From Bryobacterales bacterium (GTDB taxonomy: Bacteria > Acidobacteriota > Terriglobia > Bryobacterales > UBA6623): a DNA stretch of 64,000 nt. The DNA is taken from the NCBI GenBank assembly GCA_963422375.2, contig OY729428.2:160001-224000 (forward strand). Direction: 5' to 3'. The stretch's first letter is position 1. Each line of letters begins with the position of its first letter. Positions 21,851 to 34,487 of this stretch are shown piece after piece. Position numbers and translations under genes: made by a program. Below the pieces are notes generated by a model. That model worked only from the letters and a program-made list of their open reading frames with translations, searched no databases and was not told the DNA's origin.

Positions 21851-22256
21851 CCCGGATTATTCATAAGTAGCCCGGAGGGCCATAGCCCGGTCCCTCCGCC
21901 CCGGCCGTGAGGGCCTCCGGTCCAGCGCGATCCTCGCTCCTACGAGTGCCCTGCGATTCCCGGCGGCAACCCCGGCCCGGTCCGGATGAGATCCCAGTTT
22001 ATAAACTGAAACTGTTTTCCACCGGAGGTTTATGTTGAATGCATCGTCGCATCCGCAGCTTCCCAAGGCGTTCCGTTCCGCAATGCGCCCCGTCGCCTTC
22101 CCCCTTCGATCACGAGCGCCGCAGCTCCGACGGCGGCGCTGTCCCGGTCGAGGCCGCCGACCGCGCTCCCGGCCTCACCGCGGCTTTCGCCGACTGCCTG
22201 CGCGACCGGCGCCAGCCTTCCAAGGTGCTCCACTCCCTCGCCGCACTGTTTCGCAG
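21851..22256 (+). mobile_element. IS1380-family remnant (left end plus transposase N-terminus)
   Basis: End-like CCCGGATTATTCA at 21851; peptide FDHERRSSDGGAVPVEAADRAPGLTAAFADCLRDRRQPSKVLHSL fits the IS1380 N-terminus. Confidence 0.75.
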
Positions 22257-22585
22257 CCGGCTACGATGTCTCGACCGCGGCGGGCCTGGAGGACACGGCG
22301 GCCCGCATCCGGCACCACCTCGGCATGGAGAGCCTGCACCTGATCCACGCCAACGATTCGAAGACGCCGCTGGGCTCCAACAGCGACCGGCACGAATCCA
22401 TCGCGGACGGGCACATCGGCGCGAAGGCCTTCGCCCGGATCCTGGGGCACGCCGAGCTGGCGGACAAGCCCTTCATCCTCGAGACGCCCTTCATCGACGA
22501 GAGCCATCGCGAGAACGTGCGCAGGCTCCGCGCCCTGGCCGAGGGCCGGATCGCGGACCTGCGGGCCGACCAGGCCGGCAACTAG
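22244..22585 (+). pseudogene. nfo: Endonuclease IV, 3' portion only
   Basis: HCFAAGYD, IHANDSK, DRHESI..GHIG and ILETP motifs; the 5' part is replaced by the IS1380 remnant. Confidence 0.88.
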
Positions 22586-24202: not shown

Positions 24203-24833
24203 TCAGCTCCGCTTCCCAGCGCGCACGGCCATCTCGAAGTGCTCGCCGAGGTAGACCCGCCGCACCTCGGGGTCGGCTTGCAGTTCCCGCGGCTGCCCGG
24301 CCCGGAAGACGGATCCGTTGTGGATGATCAGCGCCCGGTCGGTCACGGCCAGCGTCTCGCGGACGTTGTGGTCGGTGATCACTATGCCGATTCCCTCCCG
24401 ACTCAGTCTACCGAGGACGCCTTGCAGCTCGAGCACCTGCTTCGGGTCGATCCCGGAGAACGGCTCGTCCAGCAGCAGGAAGCTGGGCGACAGCACGAGC
24501 GAGCGCGCGATCTCGACGCGCCGGCGCTCGCCCCCCGAGAGCTGGTACCCCCGGCTGCCGCGCACCTTGTCCAGCCCGAGCAGGGCGATCAGGTCGTCCA
24601 GCCGCTCGCGGCGCTCCGCGCGGACCAAGGGCAGCGTCTGCAGGATCGCCAGGATGTTCTCGTCCGCGGTGAGCCTGCGGAAGACCGACGCCTCCTGCGG
24701 CAGGTAACTGATGCCCAGGCGGGCCCGCTGATACATCGGCGTGTCGGTGATGTCGCTGTCGTCGACGAACACCCTGCCCGCATCGGGGCGGACCAGACCC
24801 GCGATCATGTTGAACGAAGTCGTCTTCCCCGCC
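24203..24833 (-). pseudogene. lptB: LPS export ABC ATPase LptB, 5'-truncated inside Walker A
   Basis: AGKTTSF, YLPQEASVFRRL, LSGGERRRVEIAR, LLDEPF, ITDHNVRETL, VYLGE; the upstream GPNG is replaced by an IS end. Confidence 0.92.
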
Positions 24834-25710
24834 CAGCGGTTCTCAATTTGGCCGTCAAGGGGGTGCGTGAACGTTGTTTCGGAGGATAGAGGTGAATAAG
24901 TTGACCGAGAGGTTGCGCTCCTGAGGCCGCCCGCGGGAGCGTCGGACGGCGGGCAGGGCCGTGGTGCGGCCCGCGTCGCGGGTCCGCCGAGTGCCGAGCC
25001 CGCGGCCGGACGCACTCCGGCGGTAGCCGGCTGCGACGGTCGGCCGCTCGCCGGACGCTGCCGGCACGAAACTGCGCGGAGTCCAGGCCCCGGCTGCCCG
25101 GCCGCCTGGCAGCCCGGAGGCGCGCGTCCGGCGCGCACCGCCGCCAGCAGCGTCGGCCGGTCCGGGAAGCGGAACCAGCGCAGCGCGACCTGCAGCTCCC
25201 GGAACAGGGCGCGGCGCGTGACCGGCTGGCGCCGGCACTGCTGCCGCAGCGCGCAGACGCACTGCACCACGGCGTGGAGCGCGAAGGCGAACAGGTTCAG
25301 CACGGCCAGCACGCTGGCCAGCCCTTCCTTGCCGTGCCCGAAGTTGCGCTTGCAGTTGCGGCCGTGCCGCGCCAGGCAGTTGAAGCCCTCGTTCTCGATC
25401 TTCCAGCGCGCCCGGCCGGCCCGCGCGATCCGCTCCGCGTTGTCCGCGGTGACCGCGAGACCGGTGAAGAAGCTGCTGGCGCAGGTGCGCTTGCCGCCGC
25501 GTTCCACGGCGTACTCGATCCAAGTGCCCCGCAGGGCCTCGCGGCCCTTGCGCAGGGGCACCGCGGCCGTCCGGCGGAAACGGTGCCGCTCGCACCGCTG
25601 GCCCTTCCCGCGCCGCGGCAGCCAGCCGGTCGAGCGCACCGCGCCGCTCGCCCGCCGGCTCTCCAGCACCTCGTACAAGTGCTTGCGGGATCCGGGCTTG
25701 CATACCCGGA

Positions 25711-26602
25711 CCTGATTACCCACAAGACTCAGCCAAGGTTAGGAGGCGGTAAGGCATGGGCGGGGTGCGCACGGAGGCGTGGAGCAGGCGGGGGACCAGC
25801 ACCTCCAGATCGTAGCGGCGGTTGAAGCGGTAGCGGAACTCGGCGAGGTAGCGCGGCAGGTGCTTGCCGTCGAACGAATGGCAGGTTCCCGCCAGGGACT
25901 GCTTGACGTTCCCCAGCATCGTGTTGACCCGGACGAAGCGGGAATCCGCGCAGCTCCGCTTCCCGCCTCCGGTGACGGTCGGCACGTGCTCGCAGCCGGC
26001 GGCGCTGATCTGCACGGCGGCCACGAACGGCGTCTTGCCCGCCGCGCCGCGCCCGCGCTTGCCGCCGCTCCGCTCCCCGCCCCGGTAGGCGTCGTCCACC
26101 TGCACGATGCCGCCCGGCGGCACGCGCTCGTCGCGCTCCTTCATCACTTGCAAGAGCTTGTGCTTCATCTTCCAGGCGGTATTCCGGCTGACGCCCGGCT
26201 GACGCGCCAGTTCCAGCGACGAAACGCCGTGCTTGCCCTGCGTCAGCAGGTGGAGCGCCAGGAACCAAACGGTCAGCGGCAGCTTGGTGGCGGCGAAGAT
26301 CGTGCCGGCGACGAGGGAGGTCCGGCGGTGGCAGGCATGGCACTGCCGGAGCTTGCGGGAGCGGATGCGGCAGTGCCGCCGGGAGCCGCACTCCGGGCAG
26401 CGGAAGCCGTCCGGCCGGCGGGCGTTGAAGACGGCCTGCTCGCACTGCCCCTCGCTGCCGTAGCGCTGCAGGAACTTGCCCAGGCTGAGTCCCTTCTGGC
26501 ATTGCACGCGATTGCGTTTCATCAGCTATCCCCTTTCCTGTCAGAGGTTTCCGACCTCCTCCAGTATAGCATATCCTCGGCTGACGTTCGTTGGTAATCA
26601 GG
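25711..26602 (-). mobile_element. IS1595-family element, type B copy 3; nested, in-frame internal deletion
   Basis: Same ends as the other copies; 8-bp TSD TACCCGGA (25703-25710 / 26603-26610); ORF 25716-26522. Confidence 0.95.
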
Positions 26603-26674
26603 TACCCGGATGCAGTCCATGCCGGCCGCCGCGGCGGCCTCGCAGACCGGCTGGCAGCAGTGCAGGTCGTCGCC

Positions 26675-26733
26675 CGGCAGGACGGGGCGGCAGGACGGGG
26701 CGGCAGGACGGGGCGGCAGGACGGGGCGGCAGG
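26675..26733 (+). repeat. 13-bp tandem repeat (CGGCAGGACGGGG) x4.5 inside the ISNCY transposase
   Basis: Read directly from the sequence; frame preserved. Confidence 0.9.
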
Positions 26734-28334
26734 CCTGCAGCCAGGCGCCGCGAGCGGCGAGCCAGCGCTTGGCGGCGTTGCGCTCGCAGTCCCGCTTGCG
26801 CTCGTCCTCGCTCATGTCGGCGCGGGTCGCGGCCGCGTCCTGCTGCGGGCACGCGAACTCGGGCATCAGCGGCAGGACGGTGGCGTGGCCGTCGGCCACC
26901 GCGGTGGCCGCGACCATGGTGCGGAAGTGATGCGGCCGGCGCTCGCTGCCGACGCGCCGCACCGAGCACTGCGGGCAATGCACCCTGTCGGAGCGGTGGA
27001 ACCGGACGCCGTCCGGAGCCGCCGGCAGGCGCTCGTCGAGGCGCTGCAAGGGCGCGAGCGCGCCCCGCGCGGCCACGGTTTCGAGGCACGGCCGGCACAG
27101 CGGGTCGCACGCGGCCGGGTCGCGGTCGTCGAGCAAGTTGCGGATCCGCTTGTCGCAGGGGATGCGGCCCACGCCGCACAGGGTCCGGCAGTTGGAGCGG
27201 GAGCCGTCCCGCTCCATGCGCCGCTGGAACGCGAGCAACGACTCGCACCGGGTGCAGAAGCAGGCCGGGGCGCAACCGGCGGCGGCGCTGACCTCGTAGC
27301 GCTTGTTGCGACCCGCGCGCCGGTCGGGCCGGCCGGCGGCCGTCTCGCGGAAGGCGCTCAGCAGTGAGTCCAGAACATGGGGCATTCACCCTAGCTCACG
27401 CATTCCGCTAGCAAAAGTCAAGTGCCAGACTGCCTGCGACACCTTTCTCAGACACTCTGGAAATCCCCAAAGGCCCAAATTGAGAATCGCCGGCTGCGGA
27501 CCACTCGCTCGTCTTCGATGTGGTGCGCCGTTTCGCCCCGCCGCTTGGCATCGAACTGACGAAGCGGGAGAGGCGCTCAATCGAGACGGCGAAGGGCGTG
27601 GTCCGTCTGCTGCCGGTCTCCGAGCGGGCACGGCCGCTCTTCGCCAAGCGCGCGTCGCGGGCGGTCGCGACGTGGCTGGAGTGTCATTCGGCGACGCGAG
27701 CAGACCCGCCGCAGGCGGTGCTTTTCCCGGACTGCGAGGGCCACGGCGGACCCTCGGTCCGGGAGCGGCGACCGCGTTACGGCGATGACGACGCCCCCGA
27801 CGACGGCTCTGCTCCGGCTTCGGGCGCGACCACGGCCGACCGGATGCACACCGGAATTCTGCTCCAAGCCGGAGGCCAGACGGAAGCGCGGCCCCGACTT
27901 CCTGCGCCTGTCGATCGCTCTCTCGGCTCTGTATCCGCGTGGCAGCGAGGAGAAGCGTCCGCTCGGCGCCAAGCTGCTCGTGGTGCCGCGATGAGGCCGA
28001 CATCCGGTTAACCCGTACGTCAGACGGGTACGAAGCCTGACGAGGGAGTGCAGGGCATGGCAGATTCCGAATTGCTGAAGCGCATCCGCTCCGCCTGCAT
28101 GCCGGTGGATGAGGCGAGCACTCTGCCTGCCGCCCTTGTACAGCGACTCGTTCGACCGCTTGCCTCGTCCGTCAGGCGGTCGAGCACGTGCTGACGCTCG
28201 TGACACCGGACAGTGTCCGGTGCGTTGCGCCTGCTGAAGTCGGTTTCCCGAGGCGTGTTCACAGCGGTGTCGGCGAGCGAGCACGCGGAGATGGATTGCT
28301 CCGTTGATCGTCGGATAGACTAACAGGAGACTCT

Positions 28335-29177
28335 GTGAATTCAAGCCGGCCTCAGGACCTGCCCGAATTCGCCAAGCCACCCTTGGCGGAAGTTGCCCTG
28401 TCCCTTCAGTTCCGATCGCTGTCCAGCCTGACGACCGCTCACATCGGCCTGCTCTGGCGGAGGTATCGCGACCAGTTGCCGCTGATCGAAGAGCACCTGC
28501 CGCTGGCGCCAGCCTCGGAGAGCTTCGATCCGCCATCACTGCCACGGGTGGAGATCGCCTTTGAGGGCAAGCCACCTGCTCCGCGCGTCTGGTTCGTGAA
28601 TGAGGCAAAGACGGAACTCGTGCAGGTGCAGCAGGACCGCTTCATTCACAATTGGCGCAAGATCGGCCAAGTCGACACGTATCCGCGGTACGAACGAATC
28701 CGCGAGCGATTCCGACACGAAGTGTCAATGTTCGAGAAGTTTCTCGAGGACGAAGGTCTCGGCGAGCTGGAGGTCAACCAATGCGAGGTGGCGTACGTCA
28801 ACCATATCGAGCGCGCAGGAAGATGGGAGAACCATGGAGAGGTCGAGAAGATCCTGAGGAACTGGGCGCCGTTGCCAGCCGTTGCATTCCTGCCGGCCCC
28901 GGAGGACGCCGCGGTTCAGTGGCGGTATCGCATTCCGGGCTCTGATGGACCCGTCGGCAGATTGCACGTGACGGCCCAGCCCTCGTGGAGCACGGCTGAT
29001 GGGAGCCCAGGCTGGGTCATGAATCTGATGGCGCGGGGAGCCCCGATCGGAACTGGAATCGACGGGGCGTTCGAGTTCTTCGATCTGGGGCGAGAGTGGG
29101 TGGTGCGAGGGTTCGCAGATCTGACCACCGAGTCCATGCAACGCTGCTGGGAGAGAACGAATGCCCGGTCTGGTTAA
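28335..29177 (+). CDS. TIGR04255-family-like protein of unknown function
   Basis: FAKPPLAEVALSLQF, RVWF..LVQVQQDRFIHNW, YPRYE, YVNHI, F..LTT; AGGAG SD before the GTG. Confidence 0.82.
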   Translation: MNSSRPQDLPEFAKPPLAEVALSLQFRSLSSLTTAHIGLLWRRYRDQLPLIEEHLPLAPASESFDPPSLPRVEIAFEGKPPAPRVWFVNEAKTELVQVQQDRFIHNWRKIGQVDTYPRYERIRERFRHEVSMFEKFLEDEGLGELEVNQCEVAYVNHIERAGRWENHGEVEKILRNWAPLPAVAFLPAPEDAAVQWRYRIPGSDGPVGRLHVTAQPSWSTADGSPGWVMNLMARGAPIGTGIDGAFEFFDLGREWVVRGFADLTTESMQRCWERTNARSG

Positions 29178-29706
29178 TGCCGTTGACGCGGGTCCGGGGG
29201 TGCTGGCGGAGAGCTTGGTGCAACGTCGGTTGTCAACGACGGAGACAGTGGCAGCTGCAGGTGCCTTGGTCGCTCCGCTCGTCCGAACGATGTCGCAAGA
29301 ATCGCCTCGGCGGCCGATCCGAAGGATAGCGATTCGAGCGTCCAGGCGTGATCTGCCTGAAGGGCTTGTGCATGCTCTCGAGCGGGCCTGCGAACTGCAG
29401 CAGCTCCCGAGGGGTTGGAATTCGTACGGCGCCGAGCCGGTTTCGGATACTGCCTTCAGACGGGCAATCGAGTTTCTGACGGCATACGTGGTTCGAGGCA
29501 TCGCCGGTCCCGTGCTCGTGCCCACGGTGCGGGGCGGGCTGCAGATCGAATGGCACCGGAGGGGCGTGGACATCGAAGTCGAAATCAAGCCTGACGGATC
29601 GGTGTCGTGGTGTGCGGAAGACCGGCGGTCGGGTGAGGAGGTCGAAGCGGTCCTGACCGGTCACGAAGAAACGGTCCGAGAGTGGCTTAGAAGGGCCTCG
29701 GACTGA
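29161..29706 (+). CDS. Conserved hypothetical protein; true start may be ATG 29290
   Basis: Globular C-terminal part LQQLPRGWNSYGAEPV..PTVRGGLQIEW..IEVEIKPDG; overlaps the upstream stop. Confidence 0.72.
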   Translation: MPGLVNAVDAGPGVLAESLVQRRLSTTETVAAAGALVAPLVRTMSQESPRRPIRRIAIRASRRDLPEGLVHALERACELQQLPRGWNSYGAEPVSDTAFRRAIEFLTAYVVRGIAGPVLVPTVRGGLQIEWHRRGVDIEVEIKPDGSVSWCAEDRRSGEEVEAVLTGHEETVREWLRRASD

Positions 29707-29710
29707 GCTC

Positions 29711-30127
29711 ATGACCTCCGCGGAGGAGTGCCGGAGACAGTTTCCCGACGATCCGCAGATCCTTGATAACGTTCGTCTTCTGCGGAGAGTCCCGCCGTGG
29801 CATTTCGTTCGTGACGACAACGACGGCTGTATCCGGCCTTCGTCGGCGGCGTTCATGGACGACCGCGACGGAGATCCCATGTCCGTCTACCGCCAGGACG
29901 TCATAGAGAGGGACGGCGGGGAGCCGGGGCGGGTGCTGGCGAATCACAGGGGCTTCGGCCTAGTGTCGATCTTGGCCAGCCAAGTGCGTTCCAAAAACCA
30001 GACAGTCCACTCGGATCCTGTTCCGGAGGAGTCGTCGCACGCCAAGGTCTGCGGGCCGAAGCCGAGATCCACGCGGAGGTGGCTCGTCCGCCGCGCCGAG
30101 TGGGTATTCGCGCCACGGCGTGCTTAG
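29711..30127 (+). CDS. Small hypothetical protein, ADP-ribosyltransferase-like motif layout
   Basis: LLRRV..PSSAAF..MSVY..DPVPEESSHAKV; starts 4 nt after the upstream stop. Confidence 0.7.
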   Translation: MTSAEECRRQFPDDPQILDNVRLLRRVPPWHFVRDDNDGCIRPSSAAFMDDRDGDPMSVYRQDVIERDGGEPGRVLANHRGFGLVSILASQVRSKNQTVHSDPVPEESSHAKVCGPKPRSTRRWLVRRAEWVFAPRRA

Positions 30128-30870
30128 GAGTCTCGCCGAAACAACCTGTCCGCTTCCTCGTTTCTCCGGTATACACGGCGCCACGACCGGGATGACACAA
30201 GCGGTGCAGGGAAAGTTCAATGTGTTGAGACCGCTGTTGGACGAGCGCACTCGCTGCCTCTGGGCCGCGGCGGAAGCCCGCGCCATTGGACGCGGGGGCA
30301 TTCCATGGGTCGCCAAGACAACCGGCATGTCGTGCGCCACGATCCGGGCCGACTTGCGGGAACAGCATGCGTCCTCGCCACAGGAGTCGCGGGCGGGCAT
30401 TGCGCAGGTGGGCACCCTAGGCGGCGGTCGACAGGCGCCGGCGGATCGCGATCCGGGTCTGGTGAGGGCATTGGAGGTGCTGCTCGACCGGTTCCCGCGG
30501 GCGACCCTCAGGGTCCGCTGCTCTGGACGTGCAGCAGCGCGGCGCGCTGGGCGGAGCAGTTGGGACCTGCAGGACATCGGGTCAGCGAGCGCGCGGTGAA
30601 TCGGCTGCTGCACGAGTTGGGCTACCGCTTGCAGGCCAGCCGTAATACGCTCAAAGGCCGCCGGCATCCGGACCGGACCGGAATGCACGATTCCGGCGCA
30701 TCGCCCGGCGGGCGCGGGCGTTGCAACGCTTGGGCCAGCCGGCGGCCTCGATCAACACGAAGAAGAAGGCGTGGGGCGACCGATGCCGCACCGGCGGCCG
30801 GGAACGGGTTCTACCGATCCCGCCTAGGGCCGCTAGCCGGCACAATTCATCAAGCCATGGATTCGGGCGT
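30125..30870 (+). mobile_element. ISAzo13-family transposase remnant (frameshifted, truncated)
   Basis: LDERTRCLWAAAEARAIGRGG, GGGR, GDPQGPLLWT, LLHELGYRLQ, HPDR, INTKKK across frames; boundaries approximate. Confidence 0.85.
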
Positions 30871-30904
30871 TCGCCCGCCCGACTCGCAGCACCCGCCCGT
30901 CCGG

Positions 30905-31680
30905 GCTGGCATCACCGACCAGCGGAAGCACTGAATCCGGCCATCCTTTCCCGTCGCGCCCAATAGCATCCCGCTGGAGATGGATTCCTGCCGTCAGACC
31001 TCATGCGCGCATTGACCGGGCTAGTCGCGCAGAACCCAGATCGGCGAGGACCACGCGATCTCTGCGTTCGCCTGGACCGCCCGCAGGTAGTAGAAGCTCT
31101 CGCCATCCAAGGGCTCCTGATCGGAGTATTCGAAGTCGTGATCCGGGCTGCCCGGTGTGGCGATATAGACGACTTCGTTGTTCCGCACCAGCGCCACTTG
31201 CCGCAGCGTGTCCGTGCCGAGAATCCTCGGCCGGATCGCCGGCACCTCCGCTCCGACGCGGATCTCGTCGCCCATGAAGGCCTCCCCGAGGCGGAACTCT
31301 ATGATGATGTTGTCTGTCCCCGCGCAGGCGTGCCGCCGGCGGATGGCGGCCGCCACGCCCTCGCACGTGGCGCTCTCCGCGTACACCGTGGCGTACGACA
31401 TGTCCGTGGAGAGGTGGTCCGAGCTCGCTGATTGGCACGAGCCGAAGATCCTTGGCCCAAGCGGCCGCGACCATGCCGTCGGGGTGGATTTCCTCCAGCA
31501 TGGCCGAGCCGGCCGAGAGACAGCCACCCGTCGTCCGTGAACGGGCAGCCGACGCATTCGCAGCGGTGGCGGTCACCCTGGAAGATCTCGACCACGGGCT
31601 CGAGCTCGGGGTCGCTGTCGCGCCAGTGGTCGCCCGTGGTCGTCGCGGACGTGTCCTAAATCGCGAGCCCGCCGGTGCAA
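30905..31680 (-). pseudogene. Decayed partial tandem duplicate of the 3' end and downstream flank of the 31842-34487 gene
   Basis: Near-identical to about 31725-32500, with substitutions, frameshifts and a stop. Confidence 0.9.
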
Positions 31681-31841
31681 CGCGCCTGCCCGACGGGCGC
31701 GACGCGCGGCGCCGGACTGACCGGGCTAGCATCGCCGACGAGCTGAAGGCCTGAATCCGGCCCTCCTTTCCCGTGGCGCCCCAATTGCATCCCGGCGAGG
31801 ATGGATTCCCGCCGTCAGACCTCATTCGCGAATCGACCGGA

Positions 31842-34487
31842 CTAGTCGCGCAGGACCCAGATCGGCGACGACCACGCGATCTCGTCGTTCGCCTGGACCG
31901 CCCGCAGGTAGTAGAAGCCCTCGCCATCCAAGGGCTCCTGATCGGAGTATTCGAAGTCGTGGTCCGGGCTGCCCGGTCTGGCGGAATAGACGACTTCGTT
32001 GTTCCGCACCAGCGCCACTTGCCGCAGCGTGTCCGTGCCGAGAATCCTCGCCCGGATCGCCGGCACCTCCGCTCCGACGCGGATCTCGTCGCCCATGAAG
32101 GCCTCGCCGAGGCGGAACTCGAGGATGATGTTGTCCGTCGCCGCGTAGGTGTGCCGCCGACGGATGGCGTCGGCCACCCCCTCGCGCGTGGCGCTCTCCG
32201 CGTACACCATGGCGTACGACATGTGCGTGGAGAGGTGGTCCGAGCTCGCGATTACTCCGAGCCGAAGACCCTTGGTCCAAGCGGCCGCGACCATGCCGTC
32301 AGGGTGGATTTCCTCCAGCATGGCCGAGCCGGCCGAGGGATAGCCCTGCCCCACGTCCGTGAACGGGCAGCCGACGCATTCGTAGCTGTAGCGGTCGCCC
32401 TGGAAAATCTCGACCACGGGCTCGAGCTCGGGGTCGCTGTCGCGCCAGTCGGTACCCATGTTCGTCGCGGACGTGTGCGAAATCGCGAGCCCGCCTGTGC
32501 GGCGGATCTCCTCGTACAGCATCTTGGTATCGCCCTCGATGACAGACCCGATGCCGTTGTGGCGCTGCATGTACTCTTCCGGGCGCGCGAAGAAGGGCAC
32601 GTTCCGGATGCCCCTCCGCGTGTGGAAGACATTGCGGTGCCCGTTGGGATAGCGCACGGATCGCTCGTAGCCGAATAGCGAGGCGTAGCCCTCGGTATGG
32701 AACAGGTCGGCCGCCTTCTCGGTCAGCCACCACCAGTAGATGCGGTCGGCGCCGTACTGGTGGTCGGAAACGAAGCCCCAGTCCATCGACGCGGCGTCGA
32801 GCATGTAGCGGTAAAAGTCGAGGAGCGATCCGTCGGGGGATGCCCGCAGATCCATCGACAGCTCGGTGTGGCGGTGGGTGTCTCCCCGCAGGATGCGCAG
32901 CTGCCGACCGCGGACGCGGACGCGGAAGTCCCGGATGCGACGGACGTCACGATCCTCGTGCGGATGGCCCGCGGGGCGCGAGTCCACATCCGGGCCGCGC
33001 TCGCTGAGAGCGGGCTCGGAGGACGGCACTCCCGGCTCGTAGCGCGCGGCATAGACGTTCTCTATGACCGTTTCCTCGGGGAGATTGACCATCACGGAGA
33101 ACGTGGGGTGCCCGTCGCGCGGCCAGGCGATCCACAGCCCTTCGCGCGCCGGCGCGGCCGCGGCGAACATGCTCGAGCGGCCGCGGCTGTACGGCACCAT
33201 GGCGGGCTCGGTCCAGCCGTCCGCCGTCAGAGTGGTCACGAAGAAGCGCCAGTAGTCCGCCAGCCTGCGCCCCTGGCGGTTGCGGACCAGCAGGTGCAGG
33301 CGGCCTTGGTCGTCGATCGCGAGGCGCCCGTAGTGGTGCAGCTGCCCGCTCTCGGGGGTGTACACCTTCTGGCCCCGCTCGATTGCGAACGGCGGCGCCA
33401 TCCCGAGCCTGCGATCGCCCGCGTAGGCGACGACCTCCACGCCGCGCCGGTCGTAGATCGGATAGCCGGGCGCTGTCCCGACGGGATCGAGGCGCCCTTG
33501 ATCCTTGGCCCAGTTGACGCGGCCGGCCTCGTAGCTGACCCACACCCGGTCGCGGCCGTCGACAGCCAGGTCGGGTCGCGCTTCCAGACGCTCGGTGGCC
33601 GCTACCTCGACCACGGGGCCGGGCTCTCCCTCGGGGAGCCGCCGCATGAGCACGTCGTAGCGGCCCTTGTCGTAGGTGTCCCATGCGACGATCGCCGTGC
33701 CTTGGGAGTCGACAGCGACCGCGGGCTCCCAGTCGTTGCGGGGGCTCTCGCTGACCCTGGCCTCCTCGCCCCACGCGCCGTCCCGGTAGGCGATGTGGTA
33801 CACGTCGGACTGCCGTCCCCGGAACGCCTGCCAAGCGACGTGAATCGCGCCGTCCCGGAAGGCCACGTCGTGATCGAAGTCGGACTGCGGCGCGTCGGTG
33901 AGGCGCTGCAGCGGCCCGAAAACGCTCCCGTCGTACCAGCGGGCGTACAGATCGAAGTTGCCGTCCACCTGCTGCGACCAGACGGTCCACAGACGGCCCT
34001 CGCTGTCGAATGCCAGCCGCGGCCTCCAGACATCGCCGCTGACGCCCGGCACCTGCGTCCAGGTGCCCCAGCGCTGCTGGGCGCTGTCGTAGCGGGCCAG
34101 GCGCACCTGGTCGCGATACCCGTCGAAGCTGGCCCAGGCCATCCACGCGACCGACCGGTCGCGCGGGTGGGTGACGATATCGGGAAAGTCGTCGGAGCGC
34201 GTGTCCTCGGTCATGCGCATCGCATCGACGATGCGGGGATCCAAGGGAGGCTCCGGTTCGGGATCCCGGGGGGTCATGAACGCCTCCGACGCGCCCAAGT
34301 GCGGAATGTTCTTGCGCGCCACCTCGTGCTGGGCCGGGGCGTCGGGCCGCAAGCGGCCCGGCTGGGCATCGTTCGGCTGGCCGAGCAGGGTGCCGGCCGC
34401 GAGCGCGGCGAGACCTGCCAGCCGCAGCGAGAGGACCGTCAGTAACCGGCCCGCGCCAGCGGGGCCGCAGGGTGTCTCGTTGGCCAT
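31842..34487 (-). CDS. Secreted protein with a repeat/propeller-like N-terminus and a C-terminal PHP-like metallohydrolase domain
   Basis: Signal-like N-terminus; GDTHRHT, SDH, GHRN, SHT, VEIFQ and ASSDH motifs; terminal YYLRAVQ..AWSSPIW. Confidence 0.8.
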   Translation of the reverse strand: MANETPCGPAGAGRLLTVLSLRLAGLAALAAGTLLGQPNDAQPGRLRPDAPAQHEVARKNIPHLGASEAFMTPRDPEPEPPLDPRIVDAMRMTEDTRSDDFPDIVTHPRDRSVAWMAWASFDGYRDQVRLARYDSAQQRWGTWTQVPGVSGDVWRPRLAFDSEGRLWTVWSQQVDGNFDLYARWYDGSVFGPLQRLTDAPQSDFDHDVAFRDGAIHVAWQAFRGRQSDVYHIAYRDGAWGEEARVSESPRNDWEPAVAVDSQGTAIVAWDTYDKGRYDVLMRRLPEGEPGPVVEVAATERLEARPDLAVDGRDRVWVSYEAGRVNWAKDQGRLDPVGTAPGYPIYDRRGVEVVAYAGDRRLGMAPPFAIERGQKVYTPESGQLHHYGRLAIDDQGRLHLLVRNRQGRRLADYWRFFVTTLTADGWTEPAMVPYSRGRSSMFAAAAPAREGLWIAWPRDGHPTFSVMVNLPEETVIENVYAARYEPGVPSSEPALSERGPDVDSRPAGHPHEDRDVRRIRDFRVRVRGRQLRILRGDTHRHTELSMDLRASPDGSLLDFYRYMLDAASMDWGFVSDHQYGADRIYWWWLTEKAADLFHTEGYASLFGYERSVRYPNGHRNVFHTRRGIRNVPFFARPEEYMQRHNGIGSVIEGDTKMLYEEIRRTGGLAISHTSATNMGTDWRDSDPELEPVVEIFQGDRYSYECVGCPFTDVGQGYPSAGSAMLEEIHPDGMVAAAWTKGLRLGVIASSDHLSTHMSYAMVYAESATREGVADAIRRRHTYAATDNIILEFRLGEAFMGDEIRVGAEVPAIRARILGTDTLRQVALVRNNEVVYSARPGSPDHDFEYSDQEPLDGEGFYYLRAVQANDEIAWSSPIWVLRD

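Follow-up and report, generated by a model that had tools for sequence, protein, structure and literature searches.

In the window analyzed here, a 64,000-nucleotide stretch of the genome of a Bryobacterales bacterium (contig OY729428.2, positions 160,001 to 224,000), three co-oriented, tightly packed open reading frames (ORF1 to ORF3) on balance probably constitute a horizontally moving toxin-antitoxin cassette that defends against phage or other mobile DNA, with ORF3 as the proposed toxin, ORF2 as its antitoxin or adaptor, and ORF1, a member of the TIGR04255 family, as a stabilizer or sensor. The sequence-only reading of this locus had proposed an undescribed tripartite toxin or anti-phage system whose third protein resembles ADP-ribosyltransferases (ARTs). 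The re-derived coordinates agree with its description of three intact genes preceded by a Shine-Dalgarno sequence, with a 17-nt overlap between ORF1 and ORF2 and a 4-nt gap between ORF2 and ORF3 (Table 1).

An AlphaFold model of ORF3 built from 144 rows had a pLDDT of 96. In a wide fold search the 12 best of the 50 rows listed were ART-fold proteins (Z-scores 4.5 to 8.0, including a second search), and the matches comprised KptA (Z 7.7, root-mean-square deviation (rmsd) 2.9 over 92 residues), AvrPphF (HopF; 6.6), Scabin (5.2), DarT (5.0), Tpt1, Tse2 (Z 5.1, 17% identity), Pierisin, TreTu, and TreX. A second structure comparison gave KptA a Z-score of 8.0 (rmsd 2.4 over 87 residues). Judging from titles and partly from recall, we take one of the 50 rows to be clearly unrelated to ARTs and leave one unplaced. 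Single Z values being middling, the ART assignment was made because the families agree with one another and because of the residue pattern. Arg25, Ser58, and His110 lie on strands 22-27, 57-61, and 110-114 of the model, and are conserved in 143, 144, and 142 of the 144 ORF3 homologs, respectively; in 19 very distant, hand-picked homologs they are kept in 16, 18, and 18. Collectively, these computations show that ORF3, as modeled, has an ART fold with an Arg-Ser-His set on strands 1, 2, and 5, and the motifs named from the letters alone (Arg in LLRRV, of which Arg25 is the family-wide residue, Ser in MSVY, and His in SSHAKV) are indeed the conserved ones. Neither a Pfam, an NCBIfam, nor a PDB sequence-profile match was obtained for ORF3, and Pfam returned none for the 144 homologs either. 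The ORF3 profile matched 1,871 clusters (50% identity) of a large unnamed family.

ORF2 likewise lacks Pfam, NCBIfam, and PDB sequence-profile matches, and its residues 74-176 match positions 263-366 of 375 in the PADLOC model PDC-M32A (E 2e-13). When aligned with hhalign to the proteins of a true PDC-M32 pair found in another genome of the genus (L017; M32B model E 1e-46), ORF2 matched PDC-M32A (95%, E 2e-8) and ORF3 matched PDC-M32B (97%, E 8e-11), with Arg, Ser, and His aligned. Homologs of ORF3 matched the PDC-M32B model weakly (29 of 88 and 31 of 144, best E 1.5e-7) and the window ORF3 itself did not match it, so PADLOC would not call the window locus. As judged from these alignments, ORF2 and ORF3 are distant homologs of the PDC-M32A C-terminal domain and of PDC-M32B, and the latter is predicted to be an ART with the same Arg-Ser-His (R-S-H) set. 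Full PDC-M32 pairs also occur in same-genus genomes (L015-L017, L028, L183), that of L028 with a stop inside M32A. We ruled out that PDC-M32A is an ORF1-ORF2 fusion: its first 260 aa show no relationship to TIGR04255 (hhalign 0.2%), none of the proteins in the ORF1 alignment matches M32A, and two long ORF1 homologs have N-terminal extensions only. A relationship of ORF2 to ORF1 was also ruled out (hhalign 0.2%).

The two parts of ORF2 differ in conservation. Across 65 rows, column conservation was 0.28-0.31 for residues 1-60 versus 0.37-0.72 for residues 61-180, and the C-terminal 110 aa of ORF2 homologs are acidic (median isoelectric point 4.7). An ORF2 was called at 51 loci, counting duplicates and the window's own locus; TIGR04255 was found upstream in 33 of them and an ART downstream in 40. 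The first ATG lies 58-111 aa before a conserved Trp in 30 of the 33 loci with TIGR04255, the other three looking mis-measured, and 27-29 aa before it in all four intact pairs without TIGR04255 (L194-L196, L198). Collectively, the computations show that the ORF2 domain and the ART form a constant core with three settings: downstream of TIGR04255, fused with further domains in PDC-M32, and by itself. In the ESM Atlas, ORF2 residues 60-181 matched unnamed clusters only, several with phage members; phages are the commonest taxon recorded in the two nearest clusters, which could represent prophage-borne cassettes or stand-alone antitoxin mimics. A phage-borne ORF2 mimic was unsupported by tblastn of phage records (1 weak and 0 matches).

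ORF1 matches TIGR04255 over nearly its full length (59.3 bits, cut-off 30), as the sequence-only reading had assigned it; neither a Pfam nor a PDB sequence-profile match was found. Its model (pLDDT 92.6) consists of a beta-alpha-beta-beta-beta-beta-alpha unit followed by a similar second unit, a two-repeat saddle topology that we take to be that of the TATA-binding protein (TBP). The top fold matches were taurocyamine and arginine kinases (Z 8.0 and 7.9) and McsB (7.3), with rmsd of 4.2-4.6, and further matches included the N-terminal domain of seryl-tRNA synthetase (7.1), S-adenosylmethionine decarboxylase, TBP (5.7), TBP-like viral proteins, and glutamine synthetases. As a whole these matches are weak and mixed (rmsd 4-5, TM-scores to the query below 0.45). 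SecB, named earlier as one possible fold for ORF1, was not among the 50 fold matches listed for the whole model and gave no hidden Markov model (HMM) or PDB sequence match. Polar residues E19, Q25, R84, Q97, Q99, N106, E151, R209, and R234 are invariant in the ORF1 subfamily, and among 30 diverse TIGR04255 members only Y116, Y154, and F260 are invariant, with P16 and P49 nearly so.

The genes that accompany TIGR04255 vary. At 30 TIGR04255 loci of the class, the window's own included, the partners were ORF2 and an ART (8), an ART with a weak ORF2-like gene (3), an ORF2 cut by the contig end (1), a gene encoding RQG...xxCDL (8), a weak HEPN gene (1; E 0.04), or none (5), with four loci too short. 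Six of the ART calls were made with an HMM that contained them, and their independent support comes from the ORF2 profile and weak PDC-M32 matches; a gene of a Crinalium plasmid (L145) was not counted as an ART, the call being circular and the gene lacking Ser58 and His110. In L033-L038, L044, and L059, TIGR04255 is followed by a helix-turn-helix or short gene and then by a gene with RQG...xxCDL...DFKR that is presumably MazF/PemK-like and that had no Pfam, PADLOC, or NCBIfam match; this set is a candidate second system. Elsewhere TIGR04255 leads a hypothetical gene and a zeta toxin gene (Vibrio plasmid CP063527.1, 158-2105; L146) or the weak HEPN gene (L042, 2240-3102), or, on a Thermus plasmid (L147), is flanked by a VapC pair and cas6. 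These arrangements show computationally that ORF1 is an exchangeable lead gene.

Where TIGR04255 of the ORF1 type is joined to the core, the linkage is tight. A search with ORF3 recovered 10 genome loci, each from a record titled Vicinamibacterales or Acidobacteria, with the trio in order in 10 of 10 (61-86% identity) and only ORF3 broken, by a frameshift, in one of them (L010). A search with the ORF1 alignment gave 551 metagenome relatives, the best 80 of which were kept, and two viral contigs, 57 of these 82 having at least 1 kb downstream; homologs of ORF2 and ORF3 follow in order in 56 of the 57 scorable loci, the exception being by eye a diverged pair. The start of ORF2 overlaps the stop of ORF1 in 62 of 64 complete trios. 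Loci were mostly picked via ORF1 or ORF2 and few via ORF3. Conservation of the trio as a unit, one of the checks proposed with the sequence-only reading, is upheld by these counts. Pairwise distances of the three genes correlate (0.66-0.76, reached by 0 of 200 permutations), which shows joint inheritance, not binding.

The distribution is patchy, with ORF3 in 4 of 301 genomes of the phylum and TIGR04255 in 26 of 151 genomes of the class. At the DNA level the window cassette is 81-87% identical to four copies from Vicinamibacterales. In the hosts of these copies the best PcrA match is just 45-52% identical, and no close copy was found among 30 same-genus genomes. Sequence comparison shows computationally that the cassette moves horizontally between distant lineages. 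At one site shared by eight same-genus genomes (L218-L222, L224, L225), a paralogous cassette has lost ORF3 in 8 of 8, kept ORF2 in 1 of 8, and kept ORF1 in 8 of 8, an ordered decay that fits toxin-first loss.

Copies of the trio were found within defense loci. We scanned 150 neighbors at the 42 loci with long flanks using PADLOC at E 1e-12 (149 of 190 called, first 330 aa, and one hmaB by hand). Matches were obtained for 32 of the 150, including two generic sigma-54 regulators, leaving 30 of 150 without them, versus 2 of 103 control genes, drawn from 12 regions in the cassette's own genome, both of these being PDC models. A restriction-modification (RM), Hma, DISARM-type, AbiE, or PDC gene lay near 16 of the 42 loci. 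In L001 and L126 the trio sits between hmaB and hmaC, and in L098 the order is drmD-drmMI-[trio]-drmA-drmB; Hma pieces flank L085, L110, and L111 as well. Collectively, these observations show by computation that the cassette lands in defense loci, and neighborhoods of the defense type, which had been proposed as a check, are present, Hma and DISARM operons among them.

The window copy bears traces of the same setting. Directly upstream of the trio, and overlooked in the earlier description, are the end of a broken hmaB and a scrap of a PIN-toxin gene. The former matches HmaB of L001 (tblastn; residues 849-989 at 59% and 995-1034 at 80%, E 3e-50) and shares 71% DNA identity over 557 nt with the hmaB end that precedes the trio there, which on sequence grounds indicates that the window copy was formerly embedded in an Hma locus, of which the remnant is the scar. 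Elsewhere in the genome are four further HmaB-like methylase matches, in two opposite-strand pairs on two contigs (C2 1173375-1180245 and C3 410203-420503). The PIN scrap, which we label as such (VapC-like) from motifs, shares 70% DNA identity over ~180 nt with an intact 128-aa gene directly upstream of the trio in L004; a 128-aa PIN-type gene precedes the trio in L003, L009, and L010 as well.

PDCs are 145 candidates drawn from genes that lie within BREX, DISARM, and type I RM systems (Payne et al., guilt-by-embedding; bioRxiv 10.1101/2024.01.29.577857). The main text of that preprint does not mention M32, and the only paper found that names PDC-M32 is one in which it is listed in a Sinorhizobium prophage (PMC12429752). 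The core of the cassette and PDC-M32 have the same gene order, ORF3 resembling M32B and the C-terminal domain of ORF2 the last third of M32A, and both were found via embedding in DNA-modification systems. However, PDC-M32 comprises two genes, of which M32A (375 aa) carries N-terminal domains beyond the part that ORF2 matches, and ORF1 does not belong to it.

The CmdTAC relation suggested earlier did not hold. Like CmdTAC and other toxin-antitoxin-chaperone (TAC) systems, the cassette has three genes, a small ART-fold effector, a variable tail on the product of the middle gene, and another protein (here ORF1) that is reused with different toxin families. CmdT has an H-Y-[E/D/Q] triad (PMC11618068), and in CmdTAC (PD-T4-9) CmdA has a C-terminal tail and CmdC is a SecB-like tetramer (PMC11618068; bioRxiv 10.1101/2024.02.24.581848). 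In contrast, the set in ORF3 is R-S-H, ORF1 is a two-repeat protein with no SecB match listed, the toxin gene comes last (the opposite order), and, in difference also from HigBAC and MqsRAC, the variable region of ORF2 is N-terminal and its C-terminal part is a conserved folded domain. No cassette protein matched PD-T4-9 in PADLOC. The catalytic set and the tail position rule out a CmdTAC homolog.

The claim of an undescribed system holds, within the literature covered, for the ORF1-led trio, which is neither CmdTAC nor PDC-M32 as modeled, but not for its ORF2-ORF3 core, which is homologous to a PADLOC candidate. No papers were found on TIGR04255 or its InterPro names (CHP04255/IPR026349) in a search that mostly excluded subscription literature. 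The titles and abstract openings retrieved contain no description of the trio, which supplementary tables (Payne PDC, DefensePredictor, language-model screens) could list, and no such system appears in passages of DefensePredictor, PMC13069673, or PMC9503650.

Among characterized proteins, ORF3 also resembles the Pseudomonas aeruginosa type VI effector Tse2. This protein of minimal ART fold matches at Z 5.1-5.3 and shares 17-18% identity, more than any other of the top rows; its pocket contains R14, T79, S80, and H122 (bioRxiv 10.64898/2026.06.15.732508), and its mechanism is described as unknown (PMC12133291). The Arg-Ser-His set of ORF3 has the residue types and order of that pocket and may correspond to it residue by residue, a reading drawn from strand positions, not from tool output. 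Tse2 differs in its Pfam family (PF18648, with 0 matches among the 144 ORF3 homologs at E 0.05 and 0 in the genome at E 10), its secretion context, and its partner protein.

These results suggest a mechanism, the steps of which we hold with unequal confidence. ORF3 very probably binds NAD+ and is toxic, and it would most likely ADP-ribosylate nucleic acid or consume NAD+. The acidic C-terminal domain of ORF2 is likely to hold ORF3 inactive. By analogy, the concave sheet of ORF1 might bind the variable N-terminal tail of ORF2 and so keep ORF2 stable, a step that we place somewhat below even chances; more tentatively still, a phage protein competing for ORF1, or host shut-off, could free the toxin and abort the infection. 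This logic would be like that of a TAC system assembled from unrelated parts: in chaperone addiction, removal of the tail yields a chaperone-independent pair, and phage proteins compete for the chaperone (bioRxiv 10.1101/2024.02.24.581848). A predicted complex of ORF1, ORF2, and ORF3, with ORF2 as the partner, gave a value of 0.84, compared with 0.81 with ORF1 replaced and 0.00 with ORF2 replaced, and was used neither for nor against binding. A broader conjecture, about which we are doubtful, is that TIGR04255 proteins form a second class of hubs for toxin control, distinct from SecB. In this view one TBP-like chain, shaped as a saddle, would hold the variable N-terminal tail of the protein encoded next and thereby gate exchangeable toxins, these being a Tse2-like R-S-H ART here and MazF-like, zeta, or HEPN-like effectors elsewhere; a phage protein that competes for the saddle would release the toxin.

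Several observations weigh against a defensive toxin-antitoxin cassette with an ORF1 stabilizer. The neighborhood comparison yields a Fisher p of 1e-5 that is an overstatement, as the neighbors are grouped by locus and a single genome served as control; some of the neighbor matches are generic helicases, one neighbor was added by hand, and the PADLOC scan found no defense neighbor in 26 of the 42 loci. Foldseek returned no match to ORF3 at E 1e-3 (AvrPphF and KptA rank top), the Z-scores of ORF3 do not exceed 8, a range that the tool rates common, and the protein closest to it in structure, KptA, functions in repair and not as a toxin. In R-S-E transferases of the cholera-toxin type, a catalytic Glu stands at the start of strand 5. 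In 142 of the 144 ORF3 homologs His takes its place, and Glu107 occurs in only 73; ORF3 may be an NADase or act otherwise. The top fold matches of ORF1 are guanidino kinases (rmsd over 4), not chaperones. Intact ORF1 without partners occurs in seven same-genus genomes (one lineage), and the ORF1 copies that stand alone in 5 of the 30 TIGR04255 loci form a distinct subfamily (KNKPLVEA...YKMALGRFY; L046-L049, L051); ORF1 may serve a separate purpose. The four ORF2 pairs without a tail represent just two lineages, and L204 has a long ORF2 tail without ORF1, with an insertion sequence upstream and the cassette broken.

These points bear on three alternatives. With toxin and antitoxin unchanged, ORF1 could be no chaperone at all and instead a TBP-like sensor that binds nucleic acid or nucleotides, or a divergent enzyme of glutamine synthetase or guanidino kinase fold that modifies ORF2 or reverses the product of ORF3. 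We consider this unlikely: the kinase, McsB, TBP, and glutamine synthetase matches, the TBP-like viral proteins, the invariant polar residues of the subfamily, and the solo copies are consistent with it, but the charged residues are conserved only within the subfamily, a pattern better explained by binding to specific partners than by a single catalytic site, and the fold matches are distant. Slightly less probable is a selfish addiction cassette that stabilizes mobile DNA and rides as cargo in defense islands with no protection against phage. Horizontal transfer, insertion-sequence surroundings, toxin-first decay, the loci without a defense neighbor, and a viral-contig copy next to a tyrosine recombinase (L063) would all suit such an element; against it stand the embedding in Hma and DISARM operons, the listing of the homologous core as PDC-M32 through embedding, and the near absence of the genes from 72,556 plasmid records, of which 1 matched ORF1 and 0 matched ORF3. 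In addition, seven of nine tested Hma-embedded candidates are reported as validated by Payne et al. (bioRxiv 10.1101/2024.01.29.577857).

We regard as improbable that ORF3 acts in repair or processing as a non-toxic enzyme that uses NAD and is akin to the C-terminal lobe of the RNA 2'-phosphotransferase KptA/Tpt1, for which ORF1 and ORF2 would supply RNA- or DNA-end binding. The ART lobe of KptA/Tpt1 is the best structural match of ORF3 (Z 7.5-8.0) and the ORF1 saddle could bind nucleic acid, but only that lobe aligns (chain residues ~85-180, 5-13% identity), ORF3 lacking the N-terminal RNA-binding lobe. The sporadic occurrence, fast transfer, and ORF3-first loss of the mobile cassette fit a toxin, and no RNA ligase or 2H gene is recurrent among the neighbors.

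The favored reading of a toxin-antitoxin cassette used in defense has consequences beyond this locus. It gives a fold and a likely active site to the large unnamed ORF3 family and, by homology, to PDC-M32B, and it ties the orphan TIGR04255 to toxin-like operons in defense loci, a link not found in the literature searched. Should ORF1 gate toxins as SecB-type chaperones do, TAC logic with swappable effectors would have been invented independently, an idea open to direct testing because nature provides cassettes that have ORF1 and the tail and others that lack them. The R-S-H ART may also shed light on Tse2; the hub conjecture, if true, would assign a role to an orphan family of wide but scattered occurrence and provide a tractable relative for working out what Tse2-type ARTs do.

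The cassette is present in a single copy in the genome (5,995,950 bases, three contigs). The AGGAG sequence (28325-28329) lies 5 nt 5' of the GTG start of ORF1. The upstream hexamer aligns with a TAnACT-like hexamer in nine relatives (TAGACT, TAAACT, TACACT, TATACT; GACACT in three) and may be a promoter; a consensus scan found neither a full sigma-70 site nor a terminator at the cassette. As noted earlier, the cassette genes are less GC-rich than the core genes, with a GC content of 0.62-0.64 versus 0.67 for the genome and a third-position GC content of 0.68-0.78 versus 0.86-0.90 in four neighboring genes. Differences from L005 at codon positions 1, 2, and 3 number 26/18/53, 23/15/38, and 21/12/31 in the three ORFs; the frames are considered coding because third positions hold most of the differences from two relatives. 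Contigs from three other runs, one possibly of the window's own sample, cover 27461-30500 with no differences or indels listed. Three short contigs from a run of uncertain kind also map on the operon and were not taken as evidence of expression.

Table 1. Features of the cassette and its immediate flanks (window coordinates).
Feature	Position	Strand	Remarks
Broken hmaB (DUF1156-type methylase), 3' end	27493..27991	+	tblastn and DNA identity to L001
PIN-toxin gene scrap	28078..28231	+	DNA identity; frameshifted pieces by tblastn
TAGACT (-10-like hexamer) and AGGAG Shine-Dalgarno	28316..28329	+	5' of ORF1
ORF1, TIGR04255	28335-29177	+	280 aa, GTG start; proposed stabilizer or sensor
ORF2	29161-29706	+	181 aa; proposed antitoxin/adaptor
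ORF2 N-terminal tail (aa ~1-61)	29161-29343	+	poorly conserved; proposed ORF1-dependence element
ORF2 C-terminal domain	29344-29706	+	LxxLPxxWxSYGA...P.VVPT..GG.QLEW; homologous to C-terminal third of PDC-M32A
ORF3	29711-30127	+	138 aa, minimal ART-fold protein; proposed toxin
ORF3 codons Arg25, Ser58, His110	29783-5, 29882-4, 30038-40	+	
Frameshifted ISAzo13 transposase pieces	30228..30679	+	NF033519 in two frames, far below cut-off; downstream, outside cassette

The decayed state of the surrounding DNA was described correctly in part: the frameshifted ISAzo13 pieces and a duplicated fragment are present, whereas the ISNCY label found no NCBIfam match (26522-27385, E 1e-3). The fragment is an ~820-bp tandem duplication (30877-32500, 81-94% identical) derived from the 3' end of an 881-aa gene (31842-34487); the duplicated copy is frameshifted and weakly matches CehA/McbA metallohydrolases. 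Upstream of the cassette, 24203-27500 consists of nested decayed insertion sequences that adjoin an lptB gene without its 5' part, and an IS1595 piece, which was confirmed, lies within another transposase-like gene and has ~43-nt inverted repeats at 25699-25741 and 26572-26614. A 13-nt tandem repeat occupies 26675-26739, and 27410-27490 is a high-copy repeat in sequencing runs. Farther upstream, at 22039-22581, a weak IS1380 transposase scrap is fused to the 3' part of a gene that we take to be endonuclease IV-like.

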